From NCBI GenBank assembly GCA_036676495.1, contig JAKFCT010000001.1:13526-77525 (forward strand): a stretch of 64,000 nucleotides of DNA. The letters run 5' to 3'. Every line of letters starts with the position of its first letter. Position 1 is the stretch's first letter. Shown in pieces: positions 4,288 through 57,227 of this stretch. This DNA comes from Candidatus Sericytochromatia bacterium (GTDB taxonomy: Bacteria > Cyanobacteriota > Sericytochromatia > S15B-MN24 > UBA4093). The position numbers and the translations under genes were made by a program. A model generated the notes under the pieces. It was not told where the DNA came from. It worked only from the letters and a program-made list of their open reading frames with translations, and searched no databases.

Positions 4288-4360
4288 GGGCGGTTAGCTC
4301 AGCTGGTAGAGCGTCTCGTTTACACCGAGATGGTCGCGGGTTCGAGTCCCCCACCGCCCA
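4288..4360 (+). tRNA. tRNA-Val (anticodon TAC)
   Basis: Hand-folded cloverleaf. Perfect 7-bp acceptor stem GGGCGGT/ACCGCCC, D arm GCTC-AGCTGGTA-GAGC, anticodon stem TCTCG/CGAGA with loop TTTACAC, 5-nt variable loop, T loop TTCGAGT, discriminator A. One C.C mismatch in the T stem. CCA is not encoded. Confidence 0.85.
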
Positions 4361-13482: not shown

Positions 13483-13576
13483 CTCCTTTTCGAAGGGGGG
13501 GACAATCCAGTTTACCATTCGTCCTGTTTCCAGGCAGCCTTGCAGCCGCACGCGCGGCAGGAACTGCGAGATTCGC

Positions 13577-39225: not shown

Positions 39226-39414
39226 GGGGCCATCCTGTCCGGGATCGTGAACGCGTGACGTGATGGCACCAGTCTAGCATAAGCAGGCGCTCGTCTGGCA
39301 TTCATGCGGGCGGAGGCTTTCTTTAAACCTCCGTGAAAGGTTGATTGAATCGGGCAAGTTTGCATGGGGACGGCGTATAATTTTCGAAGCAAGTTTCCGA
39401 AAGGAGGCCTCCGC

Positions 39415-40029
39415 ATGCTCGACTCGATAGGCAAGCTCGCGTCCCGCGCCCTCACGGCCCCCTTCCGGGCGACGCCGCCGGTCGCCGAGTCCCCCGCCGC
39501 GCCGCCCTCCCCAGGCAAGCCGTCTGCTGCCGCGGATCGGGCCATCGGCCTCGCGGGACGCGAGCAGATCGCGGCGTTCGCCCAGCCGCTCACTCCGCTC
39601 GAGGAGTTTCGCGAGCAGGCGCAGGCCATGATGGCCGGGATGGACGTCCTCACTCGGGTCGAGGCCGAGCGGATGCTGGCGGCGTTGACGCGCGACCTCA
39701 ATCCCGGCGAGTCGCTGGGCGAGTTCCGCGCCCAGCTCAAGACGATGTTCAACAAGTTCAAGCAGTTCGTGGACGGCAAGCAGGACGAGCAGCGCCACGT
39801 CAGGGCCGAGGCCGACGCGCAGTGGCTGCTGTTCTACCAGTCTCTCGAGCGCTACCTCTTGCAGCTCGCGACGCTCGCGAAGGTGGAAGCCGACGTGCTG
39901 GACCGCCGCCAGAAGGAGTCGAAGAGCGAGGCCGTGTATAGCGAGCGCCTGCTGGTCGCCGCCGCGGCGACCCAGGCTCCGGAGCAGCGGGTCACGTTGT
40001 TGAGCGCGCAGCTGAGCCGGAAGTCTTAA
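39415..40029 (+). CDS. Hypothetical helical protein
   Basis: ATG 39415 follows GAAAGGAGG inside ORF 39364..40029. A TATAAT hexamer lies at 39376-39381. No family recognised. Confidence 0.55.
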   Translation: MLDSIGKLASRALTAPFRATPPVAESPAAPPSPGKPSAAADRAIGLAGREQIAAFAQPLTPLEEFREQAQAMMAGMDVLTRVEAERMLAALTRDLNPGESLGEFRAQLKTMFNKFKQFVDGKQDEQRHVRAEADAQWLLFYQSLERYLLQLATLAKVEADVLDRRQKESKSEAVYSERLLVAAAATQAPEQRVTLLSAQLSRKS

Positions 40030-42570: not shown

Positions 42571-43596
42571 TTACTCGTTCGCCCAGAGGGTGGCGGTGTC
42601 CAGGCCGATCGCCCCGATCCGGACGAGGTTGGCCGGATTGAAACGGTCCCCGGGAGCCTTCGCGATCCGATCGCGCTCGGGCAGGGTGTCGTCAGGCGTG
42701 TGCAGGTACTTGCTGAAAACCGGCTCCGCGTAGTAGCAGATGGCCCGCACTCCGGCCTTGCGGAACGCCGCGTGATCGCTGGATGCTCCCGGGGGCAGGG
42801 CCTCGTGGGCATGGCCGCGCTCCCCATGAGGCACCTTGAATTCGCCGTAAAGCGGCTGCATGCCGCGGCGGCGGGCGATCGCCTCGATCGGATCCACCGA
42901 CTTCGCCCCGGTCCGGATCCAGTCCGTCCCCAGCGTATCCGTCTGACCCACCGCGATGCAGTCCAGGTTGACCATGCCCGCGATCTGCTTCAGGGCGATG
43001 GGCTGAGCGCCCGACGCGGTCGGCACAACCGGGTTACGGGTGTAATAGGTGGACCCGATCAGGCCCAGTTCCTCCCCCGAGAAGGCCATGAACATCACGC
43101 TGGACTTGGGCCCCTTGCCCGCCTTGGCGCGCTCGGCCATGACCCGGGCGATCTCCAGCACCGCCGCGGTGCCTCCGGCATTGTCATTGGCCCCAAAGTA
43201 AATCGTGTTGCCGCGTTTGCCCAGGTGATCCTTGTGGGCGCCGACGACGACGAAGCGATCGGGGCGCTCCGAGCCCTTCAAGACGGCGATGACGTTGTAG
43301 GCCGTCCCGCTGAAGCGGCGATCGGTGAAGGGCTGGAGGGTGACTTCGAGGCCCAGCTTGCGGAACTGCTCGACCAGGTAGGTGTCAGCGAGGGCGTCTC
43401 CCTCGGACGCGGTCATGCGGCCGGCCAGGGCGGGCTCGGTGAGGTAGGCGACGTGCGCGACCGCGCGGGCGGCATCGAGGGGGTTGCTCTCGGACGATGC
43501 CGACAGCGGAGAGCCCACCTGGTGCTGAAGGGACGGAGACGGTCCCCCACAGGCGGCTAGCAGAACGATCACGCCAAGGCTTGCAAGCTTTCTCAT
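42571..43596 (-). CDS. M28-family aminopeptidase, lipoprotein
   Basis: 341-aa ORF. Lipobox LLAACG, with GAHKDHLG, GANDNAGGTAAVLE and FSGEELGLIGS metal-ligand motifs. Confidence 0.85.
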   Translation of the reverse strand: MRKLASLGVIVLLAACGGPSPSLQHQVGSPLSASSESNPLDAARAVAHVAYLTEPALAGRMTASEGDALADTYLVEQFRKLGLEVTLQPFTDRRFSGTAYNVIAVLKGSERPDRFVVVGAHKDHLGKRGNTIYFGANDNAGGTAAVLEIARVMAERAKAGKGPKSSVMFMAFSGEELGLIGSTYYTRNPVVPTASGAQPIALKQIAGMVNLDCIAVGQTDTLGTDWIRTGAKSVDPIEAIARRRGMQPLYGEFKVPHGERGHAHEALPPGASSDHAAFRKAGVRAICYYAEPVFSKYLHTPDDTLPERDRIAKAPGDRFNPANLVRIGAIGLDTATLWANE

Positions 43597-43651
43597 CCGA
43601 CCCTCCCTCGTTTCCGTGTCAGGAAAAGCATAAGGGATAATCGAATTTTAA

Positions 43652-45079
43652 TCAATCCTTTACCAAGCCACCGGTCGCCTCCCCGAATTCAGGGGCGAGG
43701 GACGGCGAGGACGCAGCAGATAAGGGCGAGGGTTGACCAGAGAAGGGCGAGGGTTGACCGGAGAAGAGCGACGAGAGGCGGAAGTCCACGAACTGCTGGG
43801 GGTCGTCGACCTGTTCGCGTCCCATGGAGACCCAGAGGCGATCGCCCTGGAGCTGGGAGACCATGGCCGTGACGGACGTGAGACGCCCCCAGTCTCCCAA
43901 TACCACGGGGCCCAGGGCCATGCGGACCGGGACGGAGCGCGAGATCGACTGGGCCGTGGGGCCGCGCGTCCCGGAAACCGGATCGATGAGGTCCGCGAGC
44001 ACGGCCTTCGCGCGTTCGGGATCGAGCTGGCCGTACTGGGCGGCCAGAAGCTTTCCGAAGCGCTCGTCCCGTGCGCCCGGCTTCGCCTGCGAGAGGCCTT
44101 GGGCTTTGAAGGTCCCCATGCTCTGGGCGAGATCCGCGAGCGAACCGCCCGAGCCATAGGATCTCGCGGCGACCTGGCCGCCGGAGGCCTCGACGTAGCG
44201 GGCGCCTTCGCCTTGGGCCAGGGTCGCGACGAAGGCCTGGCTGGTCGCGCCGGCGGCACGGCGCAGCTCGGCCTCGGCGGCATCCGGGCCTTCGGCGTTC
44301 ATCACGCGCAGCGTGAGCCAGCGCGGGGGCAGGCCCGCCGTCTTCGAAGCACCTGCCACCGGGTCGATGGCGGCGAAGAGGCCGTTCTCGCTCCATGCGG
44401 CCTCGGCGGCCAAAGAGCCGACCCGGGTCAAGGCGACCCAAGCGGGGCCCGATTCCGGGTGATGCACCCAGAGCATGGTGAAGCGCTGGCGCGTCCCGAA
44501 GGTGAGATCATCCGAGATGCGGCCGAGGAGGGGCCTTCCGTCGAGGCTGGCCTTCCCGCGGGCGATGAAGCCGCCGCCGCCCGGCAGCAGGGCGGGCAGG
44601 TTCTTGGAGAGCGCGGCGTAAGGGGGATCGGTGGAAAGCAGCAGGATATCCGCCATGGCGAGCCCGGAGCCCGTGGCGAGGCCTCTCAGGAAGTCCCGCT
44701 CGTCCTGGGTGAGGTGCCGATCCTGCTGGCGCGCGTAGAAGCGGTGGACGAAGCCCGGCGTCAGGACGAAGGCCGGAAAGGCGCGTCGCTCATGGTAATC
44801 GCGGACCTGATCGCGGATGCGCTCGCGCATGAGGGTGCCCTGCTGCATCCCGGCCTGGAAAAGCGTTCCACGGGTCTCCATGATCAGGACTCCCCGGTCC
44901 CGGATGACCCGCCCCTGGGTATCGACGCTCTTGGCGATGACCTGGCGCTCGGGCATCGCGGGGCCATTGGGGACGTTGGGAATGGCCTCTCCACAAGCGA
45001 CCAGGAGAGACGCCCCCAGCAAAAGGGCAGGAAGAGCGAACTTGGGACGGACGATCTGGGGCAACGGTCTATGCTCCAC
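43652..45079 (-). CDS. Peptidase C45 / acyl-CoA:6-APA acyltransferase-like lipoprotein; nucleophile Cys not evident
   Basis: 475-aa ORF. Lipobox LLVACG. GTLFQAGMQQGTLMRERIRDQV and FLRGLATGSGLAMADILLLS resemble C45 N-terminal motifs. The C-terminal tail SGQPSPF/SGQPSPL comes from a 21-nt duplication. Confidence 0.5.
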   Translation of the reverse strand: MEHRPLPQIVRPKFALPALLLGASLLVACGEAIPNVPNGPAMPERQVIAKSVDTQGRVIRDRGVLIMETRGTLFQAGMQQGTLMRERIRDQVRDYHERRAFPAFVLTPGFVHRFYARQQDRHLTQDERDFLRGLATGSGLAMADILLLSTDPPYAALSKNLPALLPGGGGFIARGKASLDGRPLLGRISDDLTFGTRQRFTMLWVHHPESGPAWVALTRVGSLAAEAAWSENGLFAAIDPVAGASKTAGLPPRWLTLRVMNAEGPDAAEAELRRAAGATSQAFVATLAQGEGARYVEASGGQVAARSYGSGGSLADLAQSMGTFKAQGLSQAKPGARDERFGKLLAAQYGQLDPERAKAVLADLIDPVSGTRGPTAQSISRSVPVRMALGPVVLGDWGRLTSVTAMVSQLQGDRLWVSMGREQVDDPQQFVDFRLSSLFSGQPSPFSGQPSPLSAASSPSLAPEFGEATGGLVKD

Positions 45080-45208: not shown

Positions 45209-47044
45209 CTAAGGGTTATCCACCACGGTGGCCTCGGCGAGCCGCTCCATGCGGGTGGTCTTCACGGTCTCCGCTCCGTAGCGCCCGAGGTAGAGGTGGA
45301 TATTCTCCCGGTTCCTCAGGTACATCCAGAGCCCGTATTCGTAGGCCTCGAGGCATTGCCGCGTGCATCGCTTCAAGGCGTCCCTGAGCTCGTTCTCGTC
45401 CATGCCGCTGATCGCCTTGTAGGTGAGCGTGGTCGAGAGCTCCTCGACGTCCTCGATCACCTCGAGGATGCCGTGCTTCTCGGCCTCATGGTAGAGCGGG
45501 CTCTGCTTGTTCAGCGAGAATACCGAGCGCCCGTAGGCATGAATGATATCCGTGTTCTGACAGATCGAGTCGATGGTCATCTGGGCCTCGTCCCGGGTTT
45601 CGGTCGGATACCCGAAGAAGAGGTAGTTGAAGTTGAAGATGCCCGCGTCGGAGGAGGCCCTCAGGATGTCGAAGCGCTGCTGGTAGCCGACTCCCTTGTT
45701 GATGAGCTCGAGGATCCGGGGGGATCCGGTCTCGTAGCCCCAGAGGACCATCCGGAGGCCCGCCGCGTAGAGCAGTTCGAAGAGGTCGGGTGTGAAGGCC
45801 TTCTCGATGCGCCCGTTGCAGAACCAGGTGATGTCGAGTTCCTCGTCGATGAACCGCTGGGCCAGCTTGCGCATGTAGGCGGGGCGCATCGACTCGTCGA
45901 TGAACTGGAAGTTCCGGATGCCGTAGCGGTCCTTCAGGTAGCGGATCTCCGCAACCAGCCGGTCGAGGCTCTTGACGTCGTTCTCGACCCCGTAGAAGGA
46001 GTCGCAGAAGGTGCACTGCCCCCAGTAACAGCCCTTGCTGGCTCGGATCGTGAGGATCAGCTCGGGAGAGAGGTACTTGTCGAGTGGGAAGCCCTCGAGG
46101 TCCTGGAAGCCGATCACGTCCATCGCGAGGGGCTTGCGGGCAGAAGTCATCCGCACGGCGTCGCCGTCCAGGTAAAGCAGACTGGGGACGTGCTCGAGGC
46201 TCTCGCCGCGTTCGAGGGCTTGCACCAGGGAAAGCAGTTGATCCTCTCCTTCACCGAAGCAGAGGCTGTGCGCGAAGGCCTTGAAGAACTCGGGACGCTG
46301 GGAGAGGGCCTCGGTGACGCGCGTGAAGAAGTTGCCGCCGATGCCGATATGCATGCCCGCGGGGGCCGCCTGGCGCAGCATGTAGGCGAGCGTCAGGCCC
46401 GGCACCACCTGGGAGAAGCAGTTGATGGAGATGCCCACGTAATCCGCATCCGAGGCCAGCAGTTCCGGCAGGACCTCCTCGTAGTACGGGATGAACATGT
46501 TGCTCTTGCGGTCCTGGGCCTGAGCGATGAGGCTATTGGTGTTCATCATGAGGCCCGGCTGCTCGAAGTAGTTGAAGCTGAGCTGCGAGGGGAAGTAAGG
46601 AGTCGAGGCCGCCTTGAGGGCCAGGTCGATGACGTGGAGGGCCTCCAGCAGCATGTCCGGGTTGTAGAAGCGCCGCGGGTCCTTGAGGGTCTCCTTGGCG
46701 TCCATGATCAGGTGGGGCAGGTGATCGAGCATTTCCCCGTGCTCGTCCACGAAGCGGCGGATCGCCCGGAGCCGGACCCGGTCGAGCTGGGCGTCGAGCG
46801 AATTCGGTTCGAGCATGAGCTTGAAGCTGCTCTGCGGGCCCAGGTACTCGAGGTCGAGGTGCAGGCGGTCCCGGACGCGCTGGAGGTGCTGCGGGCTCAG
46901 CACATGATCGTAGTACTCGATGTTGAGGTCACGGACGTCGACCTCGACGCCGTGGTGGCGGAGGTGACCCGCCAGCGCCCGCAGCGCGAAGTGGGGGTGC
47001 TGCGGGCTCCACTGGGGGGGAAAGATCAGGAGCGCCTTCGCCAT
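45209..47044 (-). CDS. B12-binding-domain radical SAM protein (class B-like)
   Basis: 611-aa ORF. N-terminal KALLIFPPQW...GVEVDVRDLN Rossmann-like start and cluster motif GCYWGQCTFCD (C339, C344, C347). Start overlaps the upstream stop (TGATG) and follows GGAGAGG. Confidence 0.85.
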   Translation of the reverse strand: MAKALLIFPPQWSPQHPHFALRALAGHLRHHGVEVDVRDLNIEYYDHVLSPQHLQRVRDRLHLDLEYLGPQSSFKLMLEPNSLDAQLDRVRLRAIRRFVDEHGEMLDHLPHLIMDAKETLKDPRRFYNPDMLLEALHVIDLALKAASTPYFPSQLSFNYFEQPGLMMNTNSLIAQAQDRKSNMFIPYYEEVLPELLASDADYVGISINCFSQVVPGLTLAYMLRQAAPAGMHIGIGGNFFTRVTEALSQRPEFFKAFAHSLCFGEGEDQLLSLVQALERGESLEHVPSLLYLDGDAVRMTSARKPLAMDVIGFQDLEGFPLDKYLSPELILTIRASKGCYWGQCTFCDSFYGVENDVKSLDRLVAEIRYLKDRYGIRNFQFIDESMRPAYMRKLAQRFIDEELDITWFCNGRIEKAFTPDLFELLYAAGLRMVLWGYETGSPRILELINKGVGYQQRFDILRASSDAGIFNFNYLFFGYPTETRDEAQMTIDSICQNTDIIHAYGRSVFSLNKQSPLYHEAEKHGILEVIEDVEELSTTLTYKAISGMDENELRDALKRCTRQCLEAYEYGLWMYLRNRENIHLYLGRYGAETVKTTRMERLAEATVVDNP

Positions 47045-47322
47045 CAGGCCTCTCCCAGGATGGCCTTGGCGGCCCGCGTGAACTCATGCAGCTCTTTGAT
47101 CAGGGGCAGCATGACCTGCATGCGGTTGTGCTCGATCTCGGCGATCGCCTCGTCGTGCCGTTGCTTCTTGGCAGCGATGTCCTCGCTGCGTCCGGTCATC
47201 TTGAGCTCGAGGAGCATCTCCTTGAGGGCGCGCTCGCGTGTGATGAGCTGGTCGAGTCGCTGGACGCGCTCCACGACCTCGGCCTTGCTGAGTAACGGGG
47301 CAGCGTGATGTTGCATGGCCAT
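47044..47322 (-). CDS. Hypothetical 92-aa charged helical protein
   Basis: Begins 6 nt after the upstream stop and ends overlapping the radical SAM start. Contains no Cys and has a coiled-coil-like heptad pattern. The start may be the second ATG (47316). Confidence 0.6.
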   Translation of the reverse strand: MAMQHHAAPLLSKAEVVERVQRLDQLITRERALKEMLLELKMTGRSEDIAAKKQRHDEAIAEIEHNRMQVMLPLIKELHEFTRAAKAILGEA

Positions 47323-47328
47323 CCTCGG

Positions 47329-48363
47329 CTAGACGGTGGGAGTCTTGGTGGACGGGGTCGACGCGCTTCCGGAGGCCGGAGTGGTGGGAGTGCTGGCCGC
47401 CGGGGCATCTCCGGTGGGCGCCGTGCCGGGAGTCGAGCCTTGTCCCGAGGGGGGCCCCGCGGTCACCGTCCGTGCCGCGGCCGCTTCGATCCCGCGTGAC
47501 GCCTCGATGTCGGCCTTACGGCGCTGCTCCATCTTCTCGACGGTATCGAGCGCGTCCTTGGCCACCTGGGCGGCCAGTGCCAGACCGTCGTTTCGATTTC
47601 CCCCGCCCTGGATGCTGGCCGGATCGATGCCCAGGTCCGTGAGCGCCTGCTCGAAGCCCATGTCATGCGTGGTGAGCATGCCGTCGCCGTTGGAGTCCAT
47701 GGCGATGACGTTCCCGGTCTCCCGGTTGACGACGGCCAGCATGCCCCCTTCGCGCTTGACCTCGGCGTCGATCCCGTACTCTTCCTTGAGGATCTTGGCC
47801 AGCTCCTCGAATCCCACCATGCCTTCCTTTTGCTTGAGCACGGAATAGACCGCGATCAGCTCGTCCTCGGTCATGGTGAGGGTCTTGCTGGCCGGAGCCC
47901 CCATGCCGCTGCCGCCGACGGAGACGCTGGCCATCCGGATCGGGGGAGGGGCGGCTTCCATGGCGGGCGCGCTAGGAGGCGGCTCGATCGAGGCCGGCAC
48001 CGGCGGAGGGGAGGCGAGCGTGATCTCCTCTCCCGGAGGCGAGGAGGGGATCTCGATCTCGGTCTGCGGGGTCAGGACCGTCTCGGCCCACTGGGCCGTA
48101 TTCTCGGTGGCCTGCGGGGGAAGCTCGAGATCGGTCTTGGGGGTCCAGACGAGTTCCGCCCACTGCGAGGTGGTGCCATTCAAGCCGAGTTCCGAGGTGG
48201 TACCAGCAGCGCCGAGTGCGACCGCGTCTCCGCCGGGAGCGGCGGTCGATTGCACGGATCCGGGCTCGACTGGCCCCGCCGGCGCTTCCGGCGCGGGGCC
48301 GGCAGCGCCCGGAGTGACCAGGGGGCGTGGGTTCAACGGGTTGTTCGAAAGCGGGCTCGTCAT
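47329..48363 (-). CDS. Hypothetical Pro-rich protein with a duplicated Trp motif and one EF-hand loop
   Basis: 344-aa ORF with an AAGGAGG RBS. Repeats QWAELVWTPKTDLELP / QWAETVLTPQTEIEIP. EF-hand loop DSNGDGMLTTHD (47662-47697). Thr/Pro/Ser-rich tail. Confidence 0.65.
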   Translation of the reverse strand: MTSPLSNNPLNPRPLVTPGAAGPAPEAPAGPVEPGSVQSTAAPGGDAVALGAAGTTSELGLNGTTSQWAELVWTPKTDLELPPQATENTAQWAETVLTPQTEIEIPSSPPGEEITLASPPPVPASIEPPPSAPAMEAAPPPIRMASVSVGGSGMGAPASKTLTMTEDELIAVYSVLKQKEGMVGFEELAKILKEEYGIDAEVKREGGMLAVVNRETGNVIAMDSNGDGMLTTHDMGFEQALTDLGIDPASIQGGGNRNDGLALAAQVAKDALDTVEKMEQRRKADIEASRGIEAAAARTVTAGPPSGQGSTPGTAPTGDAPAASTPTTPASGSASTPSTKTPTV

Positions 48364-48400
48364 CGTTGCCTCCTTGATTGGGGGAGCGGCATGGCCTCCG

Positions 48401-49210
48401 CTAGAACCGGAGATCCTTGATCAGGCGGTTCTCTCGGTCGAACCAGCGCTCGCGCGTCACGTTGCCGATCGCGTCATGGTCGAATTCCTTGCGGAGGCTC
48501 ACCTTGCCGGCCTCGTTTAGCGCTTCGATCTTGGTGACGCGGTCCTTGGGGCCGTAGGTGTAGGAGTAGCCCCCGCGCGGAGTTCCGTCCGGCGAGTGCC
48601 AGCGACGCGATAGGACGTTGCCCTTGGCGTCATGCCGGTAGGTGTGAAAGCCTTCAAGCTGGTTTCGCGGCCCGTAGAGGTGCTGGCTCACCACCTCGCC
48701 GCGATCGTCGTAAGCGTAGGCGAAGCGCCGGATCATGCGGTGCTGCTCGTCGTACCAGGTTTCGTCCGCGACCTGGGCACGGTAGTTGTAATCCGACTTG
48801 ATGGTGTAGAAGAGGGAGCCGTCCTGGCGATACTCCGCGCGCCATGCCATCAAGCCTGTCCACTCGTCGAAGACGTAGCGGTGGTAGTTGTCGAAGCGGC
48901 CGTAGCGATCGACCCAGATGGAATCGACGAGCCCTTCTCCCTCGTAGCGGTAGTAGCGCTTGCTGGGCTTCGAGAACTCCCGGGTGTGCTTCTCGAAGTA
49001 GATCACCCGGCCCTCGGGATCATAGTGAAACGCCTGGTGATCCGTGGGCACCTGGCCGGCAGGGAATTCACCGTAGCCGATCACGCGACCGAACTCATCA
49101 ATCCGGCCAATCGTGAAGTACCGGACGGAGACGATGCGCGCCCGGATCTCGGCATCGAGATCCGCGAGGCTCGGCAGCCGAACCGCCCTGTCCTGGATAG
49201 CTCCCCCCAT
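48401..49210 (-). CDS. YD/RHS-repeat-like protein (269 aa), no signal peptide
   Basis: ATG 49210 follows AAGGAGG. Repeated Y-x-Y-D-x-x-G-like units: FHYDPEGRVIY, YAYDDRGEVV, YRHDAKGNVL, YTYGPKDRV, FDHDAIGNV. Confidence 0.65.
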   Translation of the reverse strand: MGGAIQDRAVRLPSLADLDAEIRARIVSVRYFTIGRIDEFGRVIGYGEFPAGQVPTDHQAFHYDPEGRVIYFEKHTREFSKPSKRYYRYEGEGLVDSIWVDRYGRFDNYHRYVFDEWTGLMAWRAEYRQDGSLFYTIKSDYNYRAQVADETWYDEQHRMIRRFAYAYDDRGEVVSQHLYGPRNQLEGFHTYRHDAKGNVLSRRWHSPDGTPRGGYSYTYGPKDRVTKIEALNEAGKVSLRKEFDHDAIGNVTRERWFDRENRLIKDLRF

Positions 49211-49664
49211 GTGCCCTCCTTCGACTGACCACCAAACCCGTGACCTTCGCACGATCACGCGATCTACCGAGGTCTTACCCGCACTCCGGCGGGGTGCTAC
49301 TAAGTAGTTTGCACGGATTTACATCACATCCATGCCGCCTCCCCGTCGAGCTTCTTCCCGTCTCCTTGCTGGACTGACGCGGCCGGAGGGGCCTCAGTCG
49401 CGCCCTATTCCGCGCGAACTCCCCCCATGCAACCGAGGGCGCCGAAGAAATCCCGCAGGCAGAGGGTATAGTAGACGTGGCGCTCGATCGGTTTCGATCG
49501 CGCATGCGTTTTGCAGATTTAACAGAATCCAAAAATAGGTTTGACACTTCGATAAGCAACTGAAAGCCAAAATCGAACGATATGTCCTTCAGCGAGATGC
49601 AAGCTCACTCAAGGGCTTACGAAAGGTACTAGCGGCTCACGGGCCGGAAGAAAGGGGACCTCAG

Positions 49665-50822
49665 ATGGTTCACACGGTAGATGGCGGGGGATCCGTTCGG
49701 CGGAACTTCCATCCCGCGGATTTGAACAAAGATGGCAAGGTGACCCGTTCCGAGGCCCAGCAGTACGTCGATAAGAAAGTTCCCGCTGCCAAGCCCGAGG
49801 GAGAGTTCAAGACGCCCGTTGCCAAGCCCAAGGGAGAGTACAAGACCCCCGTTGCCGACCCCAAGGGAGAGTTCAAGACGCCCGTCGCGAAACCCAAGGA
49901 GGACGTCAACGCCACCCGCTACCCGACGGTGGGCGAGCACATCGAGAATACGCTGACCGAGGCCAAGAACGAGTTCTTCGAGAGCGCCAAGATCGCCGGC
50001 GTCATGGCGATTCCCGGCGTCAACGTCGCCGCTGGCGTGGTCTATGCCCGCCACATGAGCGAAGCCCGCAAGGAGATCGCCCAGCTGCCCATGGATCCCG
50101 AGGGCAAGTGGAAGGACAAGGCGCGCGACATCATCAGCCGGCACCACGAGGCGGCGGAGGATGAGATCATCGCCCTGCCCGGCAAGGTGGTCGATGGGGC
50201 GGTGGATGCCGTGGACAAGGTCGTCGACGGGGCGGTGGACACCGCCGAGGCCGTCTGGGGCGGCGTCACCGACGCGGCCGAGGCCGCCTGGGACTTCGCC
50301 AAGACCGAAGTCCCCCGCGCCGCCAAGGAACTCGGCCGGGACGCCGCGGTGCTCGCCATCATGGCCAACCCGCTGGGCGCCGTCCCGAGCGGCGTGATCA
50401 TCAGCAACCACATGGCCCAGGCCAACAAGCGCATCATGGACCTGCCCATGGATCCCGAAGGCAAGTGGAAGAGCGAAGCCCGCGCGATCGTCCGCGAGGA
50501 GATGGCCGAGGCCAAGCAAGAGATTCTCGACCTGCCCGGCAAGGCCTGGCAAGGCGTCAAGGACGTTTCGAACTCCATCTACACCGGAGCGCGGAACGCC
50601 GTGGTCGCCACCGGCGAGGCCATCGTCGATGCCGGTGAAGCCGTCGTCGATGGCGTCGTGATGGCCGGAGAGGCCATCGTCGATGCCGGAGAAACGGTCG
50701 TCAAGACCGTGGACAAGGCCATCGATCAGACCGTCGCCGAGATCACCGAGAACTTCGAAAAGGCCCGCAAGGGCTTGGGCGGCGCTTTCGAGCGCTTCGG
50801 CCGCTGGATCGCCGGCAACTAG
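49665..50822 (+). CDS. Hypothetical repeat protein with an N-terminal EF-hand loop
   Basis: 385-aa ORF. EF-hand loop DLNKDGKVTRSE (49719-49754), three 11-aa KP-GE-KTPVA repeats, and a large internal duplication (...LPMDPEGKWK...LPGK twice). Confidence 0.65.
   Translation: MVHTVDGGGSVRRNFHPADLNKDGKVTRSEAQQYVDKKVPAAKPEGEFKTPVAKPKGEYKTPVADPKGEFKTPVAKPKEDVNATRYPTVGEHIENTLTEAKNEFFESAKIAGVMAIPGVNVAAGVVYARHMSEARKEIAQLPMDPEGKWKDKARDIISRHHEAAEDEIIALPGKVVDGAVDAVDKVVDGAVDTAEAVWGGVTDAAEAAWDFAKTEVPRAAKELGRDAAVLAIMANPLGAVPSGVIISNHMAQANKRIMDLPMDPEGKWKSEARAIVREEMAEAKQEILDLPGKAWQGVKDVSNSIYTGARNAVVATGEAIVDAGEAVVDGVVMAGEAIVDAGETVVKTVDKAIDQTVAEITENFEKARKGLGGAFERFGRWIAGN
49791..49889 (+). repeat. 33-nt tandem repeat x3 inside the CDS
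   Basis: AAGCCCGAGGGAGAGTTCAAGACGCCCGTTGCC and two near-copies, encoding KPEGEFKTPVA / KPKGEYKTPVA / DPKGEFKTPVA. Confidence 0.85.
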
Positions 50823-55375: not shown

Positions 55376-57025
55376 TTACGGGGTGATCTCGAAGATCGTG
55401 ACGGAAGCCCGGGGGAAGGTGTAGGCCTTGCTGAGGTTTGCCGAAGCGGACGAGACCGAGGTGTTGGTGTGGTCGGAAGCCCAACCGTTCGAGCCCTTGA
55501 GAACATGGGCGGTGGCGGCCTTCGGGGTGAAGCCGAGCGCGACGTTGGTCGTCACGTCGGAGTCGTTCGTGCGGTTGGTGACCATCACGTAGACCTTGCC
55601 GTCACGTCCCTTCGAGGCGGTGAAGGCGAGCTTGGGCATGTCGATGGAGTCCGAAGGCCCCTTCACGTGCACCGAGGGAATGGCCTGGCCTTCGACCTTG
55701 ACGACCGTGTCGCCCCAGGTCTTGGCGAGCAGCTTGTTGAACATGAAGATCGGAGTGACCGTGTTGGGGTCGTTGCCCACGAAGAACGAGGCATCCGCCA
55801 TGTCCTGGTGATCGATGCAGAACTGGTTGGCGATCCGGATGTCATGCTTGAAGGCCAAGGTCAGCGTATCCGCCGAGTAGAGCGCTCCGAACATGCCGCG
55901 GGCGGTCTTCACGTCGTTGTACATCTCGGTGAAGAACTCCGTGTTGGCGATGTAGACGTCCTTCTTGGCGTACTTCTCGATGGCCGGGACGATCTCGTTG
56001 GTGAGCAGGCGATCGTTCCAGGCGTTCTGCGCCATGATGGTCATCTTGTCGCCGCCCTTGTTGGCGATGGGCCAGCTGGGGTAGCCGTGGTAGATCAGGA
56101 AGTCCACGTCCTCGCCCATGGTCTGGAGGATGTTCTTCACACCCTGCCCCTTGGGCGCCCAGCCCTCTCCCATCCAGTTGGAGTTGGTCGAGGCGACGGC
56201 CCCGATCTGGATGGGGACCGGCGACGCCTTGCGCATGGCCTGGGCGAACTGCTTGGCCCGCTGGGCGTACTTGATGTCGGTCGAGGCGTACTCTTTGTGG
56301 CCGCGGACCTTGGACCAGGAGATCTCGTTGCCGATCTCGAAGAACTTGGCGTTCTGGACCGGGTAGGGGTACTTGGCCCGGTTGGCGTCGTTGGGGTTGT
56401 TGAGGTACGAGACGTAGCGCGCCGCCTCCTCGGGAGAGCCGGTGCCGAAGTTCACGACGTGAAGTTGCTCGGCGTCCAGGGTGTTGGCTTCCCTGAGGGC
56501 GTTGCGGATATCGTCGTACGGGTAGCCGCCGTTCTTGTTCCAGTGCTTCTCGAAGTGGTAGCCGGTCATGTAGTTGTAGTCGTGGCGGCCGTCGGTGGGG
56601 CCATGGCCGATCCGGTACATGTAGCGCGCCCCGCCCCAGTCCGGGCGCAGCTCCTTGAGCTTCTCCAGCTTGGCGGCGCCGTTGGGGAAGTAATCCGTGA
56701 CATGGTTGCGGTTGGTCGCGAGCACGAAGCTGCTGGCGGGGTGCATCGCCTGGTTGACGAAGACCTTGATCCCGCTGGATCCCGCGGGGAGGGAGGGAGG
56801 CAGAGCCGCCACGGGCGGCACCTGGGGAGCCGGTTGCGAGGTGCCGGGCTGGGTCCCGGGCTGGGAGCCGCCGAAACCGGGGAATTCGATGCTTCCGACG
56901 TTGCCGGGAAGCGGAATGCTGATGGGGCCCGTGCTGGGGAGGTTGGGAAGGGAGGCCTCGCCACAGCCGGCCACCATGGAAACCAACACGACGGACGAGA
57001 GGAGCGGCAGGGTCTTGCGTTGCAT
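55376..57025 (-). CDS. Clan GH-A-like glycoside hydrolase, lipoprotein
   Basis: Internal ATG 57025. Lipobox MVAGCG. FFEIGNEISW (acid/base-like) and IANTEFF (nucleophile-like) fit a (beta/alpha)8 retaining GH. The family is not assignable by eye. Confidence 0.6.
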   Translation of the reverse strand: MQRKTLPLLSSVVLVSMVAGCGEASLPNLPSTGPISIPLPGNVGSIEFPGFGGSQPGTQPGTSQPAPQVPPVAALPPSLPAGSSGIKVFVNQAMHPASSFVLATNRNHVTDYFPNGAAKLEKLKELRPDWGGARYMYRIGHGPTDGRHDYNYMTGYHFEKHWNKNGGYPYDDIRNALREANTLDAEQLHVVNFGTGSPEEAARYVSYLNNPNDANRAKYPYPVQNAKFFEIGNEISWSKVRGHKEYASTDIKYAQRAKQFAQAMRKASPVPIQIGAVASTNSNWMGEGWAPKGQGVKNILQTMGEDVDFLIYHGYPSWPIANKGGDKMTIMAQNAWNDRLLTNEIVPAIEKYAKKDVYIANTEFFTEMYNDVKTARGMFGALYSADTLTLAFKHDIRIANQFCIDHQDMADASFFVGNDPNTVTPIFMFNKLLAKTWGDTVVKVEGQAIPSVHVKGPSDSIDMPKLAFTASKGRDGKVYVMVTNRTNDSDVTTNVALGFTPKAATAHVLKGSNGWASDHTNTSVSSASANLSKAYTFPRASVTIFEITP

Positions 57026-57227
57026 GAACAGAAGGTATTCCTTTCTGAATGGGTCCCCGTGATTGAAAAGACGGGAAATGGCGGGGTTCTGGTTCAGCAG
57101 GACTTCGGTCACCCCTTGGACTTGCCGTTCAGCAACGCTTCTATACCCCGCCACGCGTAAAGTTACGTGTCGCTTACCAACTCTTAACGATTGTGAGGAG
57201 CCGATTTCCCGGGATCACGCGCCCCGC

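Follow-up and report, generated by a model that had tools for sequence, protein, structure and literature searches.

A conserved set of four genes, with a class-B-type radical SAM enzyme of no characterised family, as a probable protein-modification system

In this study we describe a four-gene module in a 64,000-nucleotide (nt) stretch of contig JAKFCT010000001.1 from Candidatus Sericytochromatia bacterium (positions 13,526 to 77,525), hereafter called the window. The module is conserved and self-contained. It is built around an uncharacterised class-B-type radical S-adenosylmethionine (SAM) enzyme and three partner proteins: a YD-repeat protein, a protein of 344 amino acids (aa; p344) and a charged small protein of 92 aa (p92). 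It is an undescribed enzyme system that probably serves to modify a protein. A preliminary description of the window could not assign this context to any described system, and our literature search yielded no description either; we found no curated family, solved structure or paper that describes the module.

Gene layout and conservation of the module

The four genes lie on the minus strand from 49210 to 45209, in the order YD-repeat protein (48401-49210, 269 aa), p344 (47329-48363), p92 (47044-47322) and enzyme (45209-47044, 611 aa). The preliminary description had placed them there, and all four were found at these positions. The junctions it had reported, a 37-nt gap, a 6-nt gap and a TGATG overlap, were verified in the sequence, and AAGGAGG sites were found ahead of the start codons (ATG) at 49210 and 48363. 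In a public identical contig the gene caller places the start of the small gene at its second ATG (47316), which yields a protein of 90 aa; a GAGG is located 6 nt ahead of this ATG, and the gap between p344 and p92 would then be 12 nt.

Loci were gathered from species genomes, metagenomes and exact look-ups, and their open reading frames (ORFs) were searched with profiles of the three partners. The loci compared encode enzymes that are 42-89% identical to that of the window and belong to about 17 lineages. The labels of the metagenome-assembled genomes (MAGs) comprise Sericytochromatia, "Cyanobacteria bacterium UBA8530", Vulcanimicrobiota/Xenobiia and Chloroflexota as well as a Firmicutes MAG, a Pseudomonadota MAG, a Myxococcales MAG and a rumen bacterium, and cover at least six phylum-level bacterial groups. 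Homologues of the enzyme in these approximately 17 lineages keep the YD, 344-aa (EF-loop) and 92-aa neighbours, in permuted order and with fusions. The preliminary description had named homologues without these neighbours as a ground for its refutation, and the comparison came out in its favour. A p92 homologue is located immediately upstream of the enzyme in every one of the lineages with upstream DNA, and the two genes are joined by a stop/start overlap or a gap of at most 37 nt. The YD protein is present in nearly all lineages, usually immediately downstream of the enzyme and upstream of it only in the window's own clade. The p344 core was found in most lineages, where it is encoded upstream, downstream (L009), on the opposite strand (L085) or 5 kb off (L084). 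Gene order thus varies from YD-p344-p92-enzyme to p344-p92-enzyme-YD, and the flanking genes differ in every lineage. In a relative with an 89%-identical enzyme, for example, the module lies between aldehyde dehydrogenase and FabH-like genes. Moreover, reciprocal look-ups from four p344-family representatives, which came from an index-free HMMER scan, all landed in the module. The enzyme was reached in three of the four, and the fourth contig stops just after p92. Fusions of the enzyme with a partner were not observed among 120 enzyme homologues. Under about 40% enzyme identity the partners vanish, and the clade boundary of the partner association lies at roughly 42% identity to the window enzyme.

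The preliminary description had noted that the module lacks a recognition element (RRE) of ribosomally synthesised and post-translationally modified peptide (RiPP) pathways, a SPASM domain, an exporter and a short precursor. Pfam and NCBIfam scans of the partners agreed with this, including for PqqD, and no precursor family of the NHLP/Nif11 type was detected among the partners or the flanking genes. Bacteriochlorophyll and hopanoid genes, also reported as missing, are not found near the module.

The 454-nt intergenic spacer upstream of the module (49211-49664) is the presumed promoter region. A promoter/terminator scan of it, uninformative in itself, returned no sigma-70-like site or terminator, and an Rfam scan returned no element, cobalamin riboswitch included. 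Compared with the 89%-identical relative, the spacer is conserved only in the surroundings of the ribosome-binding site. The small ORFs within it begin with TTG or GTG and are unconserved. A hidden short precursor ORF in the spacers was considered and rejected, as no credible or conserved candidate was seen.

The claim that the block is distinctly more A/T-rich than its surroundings did not hold. Its guanine-plus-cytosine (GC) content is 0.647 compared to 0.665 for the window, and 12% of the 4-kb windows do not exceed the value of the block (standard deviation among them 0.015). The GC content at third codon positions (GC3) of the four module genes is 0.83-0.91 and equals that of neighbouring genes. 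The GC deficit of the block sits in codon positions 1 and 2 and is therefore an effect of amino-acid composition. The 454-nt spacer alone is low in GC (0.568), as would be expected of intergenic DNA. A foreign or lower-GC island is ruled out, since GC3 equals that of the flanks and the GC content of the block lies inside the spread of the window.

The enzyme and its three partners

The enzyme matches the Pfam family Radical_SAM (PF04055) with 60 bits (cutoff 29.5). Its best NCBIfam match is rSAM_ocin_1 (TIGR03975) with 133 bits, far below the curated cutoff of 281.85. The same holds for PhpK (107.7 bits, cutoff 600) and for the third-ranked profile, ApyD, whose name says no more than RiPP biosynthesis radical SAM protein (80 bits, cutoff 750). 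Lower scores were obtained with HpnJ (67 bits, cutoff 578), the ladderane-type profile (60, cutoff 360), MgmA (TIGR04014; 51, cutoff 360), BchE (47, cutoff 481), BzaD (35, cutoff 450) and HpnR (33, cutoff 650). A place of the enzyme inside a characterised family such as BchE or HpnP/HpnR had been named as a further ground for refutation. Every NCBIfam score is far under its cutoff, and judged by these profiles, the enzyme is a member of no characterised family. Ten more distant relatives score 98-138 bits on rSAM_ocin_1 and none of them reaches any curated family cutoff, therefore the whole branch is uncharacterised. The top-scoring profiles are methyltransferase families, namely rSAM_ocin_1 and PhpK for the enzyme and KedN5 as well for one distant paralogue. 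More than 327 homologues of the enzyme were found.

The radical SAM motif GCYWGQCTFC is present as described, and the cysteines of its cluster-binding part (C339-x4-C344-x2-C347, CYWGQCTFC; 46004-46030, minus strand) are invariant in 28 homologues. The spacing CX4CX2C differs from the canonical CX3CX2C. The motif aligns with the OxsB motif CDYSRCTFC, which has equal spacing, while MgmA has CX3CX2C. The only further near-invariant cysteines in the 28 homologues are C560 and C564, which gives no indication of an auxiliary cluster.

An AlphaFold2 model of the enzyme was built from 28 homologues and reached a mean predicted local distance difference test (pLDDT) of 90.7 and a predicted template modelling (pTM) score of 0.90. 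In this model, residues 3-39 and 154-299 form a Rossmann-like N-terminal domain, which is followed by the radical SAM barrel and a C-terminal domain. The preliminary description had read a Rossmann-like start broken by a long helical insertion, and the model bears this out, with about 110 residues between strand 2 and strand 3 (residues 40-150; 46595-46927, minus strand). The predicted insertion helices comprise residues 40-48, 51-78, 83-121, 123-126 and 129-150, flanked by strand 34-39 on one side and, on the other, by the short strands at 154-161 ahead of strand 202-206. A Foldseek search with the model listed OxsB, MgmA, TsrM, AprD4 and CysS first (E 1e-16 to 1e-13, template modelling (TM) score about 0.5). 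The model thus shows a class-B architecture, and the enzyme presumably uses cobalamin. To our knowledge, there is no universal sequence motif for cobalamin binding.

For p344, neither Pfam nor NCBIfam returned a match. The protein consists of a conserved central domain between compositionally biased, hypervariable arms. The core (residues 142-252; 47608-47940, minus strand) comprises about 100 aa with the consensus IEVAGTGMG..KKYKM..E.LAVYS...PE.L...LKE.YGIDAEVK..DGR.A.VN..TGNVIA.D.NGNG.L...D..F..AL...GID. A word-indexed search gave just one protein, and a full HMMER scan of 1.84 billion representatives gave 57 matches, of which about 31 are true, namely proteins of 200-580 aa with the full core. 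Tandem cores occur, three in P0127 and two in P0128. AlphaFold2 predicted an alpha/beta domain for the core, with pLDDT values of 82-91 in the central blocks, and its fold matched nothing in the PDB (best E 0.16) or BFVD (best E 0.067). The "canonical EF-hand" that had been assigned to this protein stood in part. The DxNxDG-type calcium-loop-like motif DSNGDGMLTTHD (residues 223-234; 47662-47697, minus strand) is present, and D223, G226 and D234 are invariant in the family alignment, but there is no Pfam EF-hand match (E <= 0.01), and in the model the loop comes after a beta-strand and has no helix-loop-helix context. Giant repeat proteins of up to 6193 aa (P0130, P0133, P0142, P0144, P0153, P0156 and others) also match p344 repeatedly at about residues 144-186. 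These matches were judged spurious: the P0156 unit '…RTLTITDDE…' resembles KTLTMTEDE of the window, while other p344 homologues have KKYKM.E.E.

The arms of p344 are hypervariable between lineages, being Pro-rich in the window's clade and rich in Gly, Met and Ala elsewhere. In the window, Pro makes up 21% of the N-arm, and Ala, Thr, Gly and Pro are abundant in the C-arm. Both the Thr/Pro/Ser tail and the duplicated Trp motif of the preliminary description were seen again, the latter in the N-arm (48073-48168, minus strand) as SQWAELVW (48145-48168) and AQWAETVL (48073-48096). The 89%-identical relative has a single copy of it. In the Gly-rich clade the N-arm carries the related aromatic motif GWG.Y.GG..G. 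The arm motifs named are SQWAELVW, GWG.Y.GG..G and RFAALKKTAGIF.

No reliable family was found for p92 in Pfam, NCBIfam or PADLOC. Marginal matches to DDE_Tnp_IS240 (17.1 bits, cutoff 27) and PbeC (E 0.0019, 14.9 bits) were dismissed. The p92 profile gave no significant PDB match either, and the best ones were helical hairpins such as ribosomal protein L29 (E 0.04). The protein is probably all-helical. Residues D57, P73 and E77 are invariant, whereas the C-terminal tail, about 10 residues in the window, varies in length and composition between lineages. In three p344-family representatives, P0132 (= L002:8586-9977), P0137 and P0175, a p92 domain is fused at the C-terminus.

The YD repeats reported for the 269-aa protein are present, since it matches RHS_repeat (PF05593) with 28.5 bits (cutoff 22) and its family profile matches the Rhs structure 7q97 (E 1.5e-4). 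It also proved correct that signal peptide and toxin tip are lacking: the repeats run from end to end, and the alignment has no extra domain. No Rhs core, PAAR or secretion domain and no other Pfam match was found, and the protein is predicted to be cytoplasmic. Across 7 lineages, 40 alignment columns are invariant. A word-indexed homologue search found 4 proteins only. In L083 and L086, where p344 is not nearby, the YD protein has a disordered N-arm of its own that carries the motif [AS][RK]FAAL[MK]KTA.[IV]F once or twice.

Proposed mechanism and alternatives

We propose that the enzyme modifies a p344-family client by radical chemistry, with p92 as adaptor and the YD protein as scaffold, and we put the probability of this reading at roughly 40%. 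The CX4CX2C [4Fe-4S] cluster of the enzyme together with SAM, and probably cobalamin, would bring about a radical modification of a co-encoded protein. This modification would most likely be C-methylation at an unactivated carbon, because the highest-scoring profiles of the enzyme are methyltransferase families. The client would most likely be the p344-family protein with its novel alpha/beta core, DxNxDG loop and hypervariable arms, since a conserved domain with hypervariable arms resembles the leader/core logic of RiPPs and tandem cores occur. p92 may act as a dedicated, stoichiometric adaptor or subunit that joins the client to the enzyme, as suggested by how closely and invariably it is coupled to the enzyme and by the repeated fusions that place it behind p344. 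The YD protein may form a beta-repeat scaffold that holds the flexible arm, a role similar to that of an RRE in RiPP pathways. Going by gene arrangement, the p344::p92 fusions and the tight p92-enzyme coupling make a co-encoded protein plausible as substrate. The more far-reaching claim that the module is a new protein-maturation system, in which p92 directs the enzyme to p344, the YD protein holds the substrate and the product is a protein or material and not a secreted peptide, is rather doubtful.

Several observations weigh against the proposed mechanism. All source genomes are MAGs. The partner set is not complete everywhere, as the YD protein was not found on the 17.5-kb contig L009, and the profile search found no p344 core within 8 kb in L083 and L086. 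Across lineages, no exporter or protease is conserved beside the module. As to cobalamin binding, the Pfam B12-binding score of the enzyme is 20.1 bits and thus under the cutoff of 32.1, and AprD4, which is among the fold matches, is deposited as a 1,2-diol dehydratase and not as a methylase. Some class-B enzymes, for example OxsB and BchE, carry out no methylation. On the side of the client, the p344 core was modelled with moderate confidence (mean pLDDT 73.8), no conserved residue can be named as the modification target, and the other partners could equally be the substrate.

Other roles for the partners were also weighed. The module might be a RiPP-like pathway in which p92 is the precursor, with a leader-like body and a variable tail, and the YD protein and p344 are accessory. 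This would agree with p92 being the sole partner that is never absent and with its position immediately before the enzyme, with the variation of its tail, and with the best profile of the enzyme, that of proteusin-type RiPP C-methyltransferases, whose precursors are also long. However, no double-Gly or other cleavage motif, conserved protease, exporter or RRE was found, the invariant residues of p92 stand in its body and not in its short tail, and repeated fusion behind p344 suits an adaptor domain better; a precursor role of p92 is thus quite unlikely. It is similarly improbable that the YD protein is the substrate, with p344 and p92 in accessory or regulatory roles. In its degree of conservation the YD protein roughly equals the enzyme, and it usually follows the latter at a gap of about 10-70 nt, but its high conservation fits a structural partner equally well, and it is missing from L009 as well as from the Melainabacteria-type variant described below. 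A YD repeat modified by a radical SAM enzyme would, as far as we know, be without precedent.

An enzyme acting on a small molecule, lipid or cofactor, with the partners as an unmodified structural or regulatory complex, is unlikely as well. Many class-B enzymes act on small molecules, the window enzyme has weak matches to PhpK, HpnJ, BzaD, OxsB and the ladderane-type profile, and distant relatives (27-36% identity) have no partners, form tandem paralogues and in some cases stand beside a glycosyltransferase gene. Nevertheless, no other biosynthetic gene is conserved beside the module, whose flanks differ in each lineage, and small-molecule chemistry would hardly explain three dedicated partners that are not enzymes, two of which occur fused. 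A polymorphic toxin, immunity or anti-phage defence module of the Rhs/YD type is very improbable. YD repeats are the hallmark of Rhs toxins, but the YD protein here consists of 269 aa of repeats only, lacks Rhs core, toxin tip, PAAR and secretion signal, and is conserved and not polymorphic. Furthermore, five of the six proteins scanned with PADLOC had no match, the exception being the marginal PbeC match of p92; the module was not found on viral contigs, and its flanks are housekeeping genes. A role as toxin or in defence is thereby effectively excluded. That the genes are functionally unlinked, by chance adjacency or as a recent lower-GC island, has next to no probability left. The GC content of the block is 1.8 points under the window mean, but, as described above, GC3 and the spread of 4-kb windows offer no sign of an island, and the neighbourhood data, with four families together in about 17 lineages of several phylum labels, permuted in order and partly fused, already refute chance adjacency.

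Some of the most difficult C-H functionalisations known are the work of class-B radical SAM enzymes, only a few of which have a defined substrate. The branch described here has hundreds of members and no characterised representative, and one of its clades has three dedicated partners. These partners are without family annotation and include one domain without a fold match and one unusual short cytoplasmic YD-repeat protein. The module could reveal a new protein modification or a new way of substrate recruitment to a radical SAM enzyme. In addition, it could give a function to proteins of poorly known phyla (Sericytochromatia, Vulcanimicrobiota/Xenobiia, Chloroflexota and others).

Neighbouring genes, distant variants and known systems

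Two lipoprotein peptidase-like genes had been listed behind the enzyme gene. Both are present as apparent lipoprotein genes (42571-45079, minus strand), a C45-like gene (NCBIfam C45_proenzyme, 70.9 bits, cutoff 85) and an M28 gene (114 bits), and their lipoboxes, LVAC and LAAC, are visible by eye; between them and the enzyme gene lies a gap of 129 nt, in which no terminator was predicted. They are not part of the system context, as they are not found beside the module in the 89%-identical relative. Of the divergently encoded EF-hand repeat protein, the gene itself was found (49665-50822, plus strand, 385 aa), but its product has one DxNxDG loop (DLNKDGKVTRSE) and repeats of other kinds, namely three KPxGE[FY]KTPVA repeats and two long internal repeats (…LPMDPEGKWK…), and belongs to no Pfam, NCBIfam or PADLOC family. 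The C45-like, M28 and 385-aa genes were rejected as parts of the module, since they do not adjoin it in the 89%-identical relative or in any of the others. Elsewhere in the window, two genes with coding-like GC3 have no Pfam family (55376-57154, minus strand, 592 aa; 39364-40029, plus strand, 221 aa), and a tRNA gene (4288-4360, plus strand) is the sole Rfam match.

A Melainabacteria-type variant (38-43% enzyme identity) contains a different small charged ORF and a DxDxDG-loop protein that is marginally p344-like. Homology between p92 and the small helical ORF of this variant was considered and is undetectable (hhalign E 0.72). The match of p344 to the Melainabacteria upstream protein is suggestive only (probability 71%, E 3.6e-5 over 41 columns; hidden Markov model E 0.09). 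In two related Gastranaerophilales MAGs (L008:275-5723, L013:8582-14089) the variant, consisting of a DxDxDG-loop protein, an enzyme of 38-39% identity and a charged ORF of 125-127 aa, is located directly upstream of fliD (FliD_N, FliD_C). A flagellar link was judged coincidental, as four other loci of the same variant have no adjoining fliD. A low-GC metagenome contig (L092:207-4516) encodes an enzyme of 43% identity, and ahead of it a protein of 222 aa that weakly matches the p344 core (E 1.3e-5). An ORF of 117 aa that belongs to the Melainabacteria small-ORF type is found there still farther upstream and not downstream, therefore the small partner has no fixed position in that variant. Among distant relatives of 27-36% identity (L034:9908-13925; L010:6103-14398), two tandem paralogues occur in Nitrospira and Nitrospina, and some Clostridia have four class-B radical SAM genes around a GT2 glycosyltransferase gene; of the two located upstream, the one scanned is KedN5-like. 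None of the distant relatives scanned reached a curated family cutoff.

Compared with known systems, class-B radical SAM chemistry, probably on a gene-encoded polypeptide, is the familiar part of the module, and a partner set for which no precedent was found is the new one. The best curated profile is that of the PoyB/PoyC-type proteusin C-methyltransferases (TIGR03975), to which enzyme residues 163-528 align on positions 93-461 of 606. Both have a similar length of about 600 aa and a similar layout of Rossmann domain and radical SAM barrel, and both would act on gene-encoded polypeptides if our proposal is right. However, the enzyme scores under half of the cutoff, the module has no NHLP/Nif11 precursor, and the set of partners is entirely different. 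Moreover, the N-terminal motif FPPQW, the insertion of about 110 aa and the C-terminal domain are specific to the enzyme family described here.

A partner requirement has been described for MpcB of the clavusporin pathway, a B12-dependent radical SAM C-methyltransferase that is active only with the co-encoded MpcC of unknown function, and whose C-terminal region reaches at least residue 612 (PMC10849626). In the mpc system the partner is a DUF5825 protein, a 39-mer serves as substrate, the conserved genes include an S9 peptidase and a transporter, and all 229 clusters identified are actinobacterial (PMC10849626). MpcB/MpcC sets a precedent for a partner that is non-catalytic yet indispensable, as p92 may be. 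In contrast, the partners in our module have no DUF5825 match at E <= 0.01, and neither a peptidase nor a transporter is conserved beside it.

Precedents for class-B enzymes that act on a full-length protein and not on a short peptide are MgmA and Mmp10, which methylate methyl-coenzyme M reductase. MgmA (PDB 9ccb) is the third-best fold match to the enzyme (E 1e-15) and also matches in sequence, but it has the CX3CX2C spacing, is about 200 residues shorter than our enzyme and is archaeal. Dedicated partner proteins of MgmA are not known to us. OxsB (PDB 5ul2-5ul4), a cobalamin-dependent radical SAM enzyme, is the closest solved structure both by sequence (E 3e-15) and by fold (E 5e-16), although the identity of 15-16% and the TM score of about 0.5 mean shared architecture only. 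OxsB acts on a nucleotide, in which it contracts the ring, and carries extra domains.

The repeat type of the YD protein is common to the shells of Rhs proteins and teneurins. In contrast to these, it has no Rhs core, plug or toxin, appears cytoplasmic from its sequence and is conserved instead of polymorphic, and by our reckoning its 269 aa are too short to close a shell of that kind. If our proposal is true, holding a substrate would be a role not previously assigned to YD repeats.

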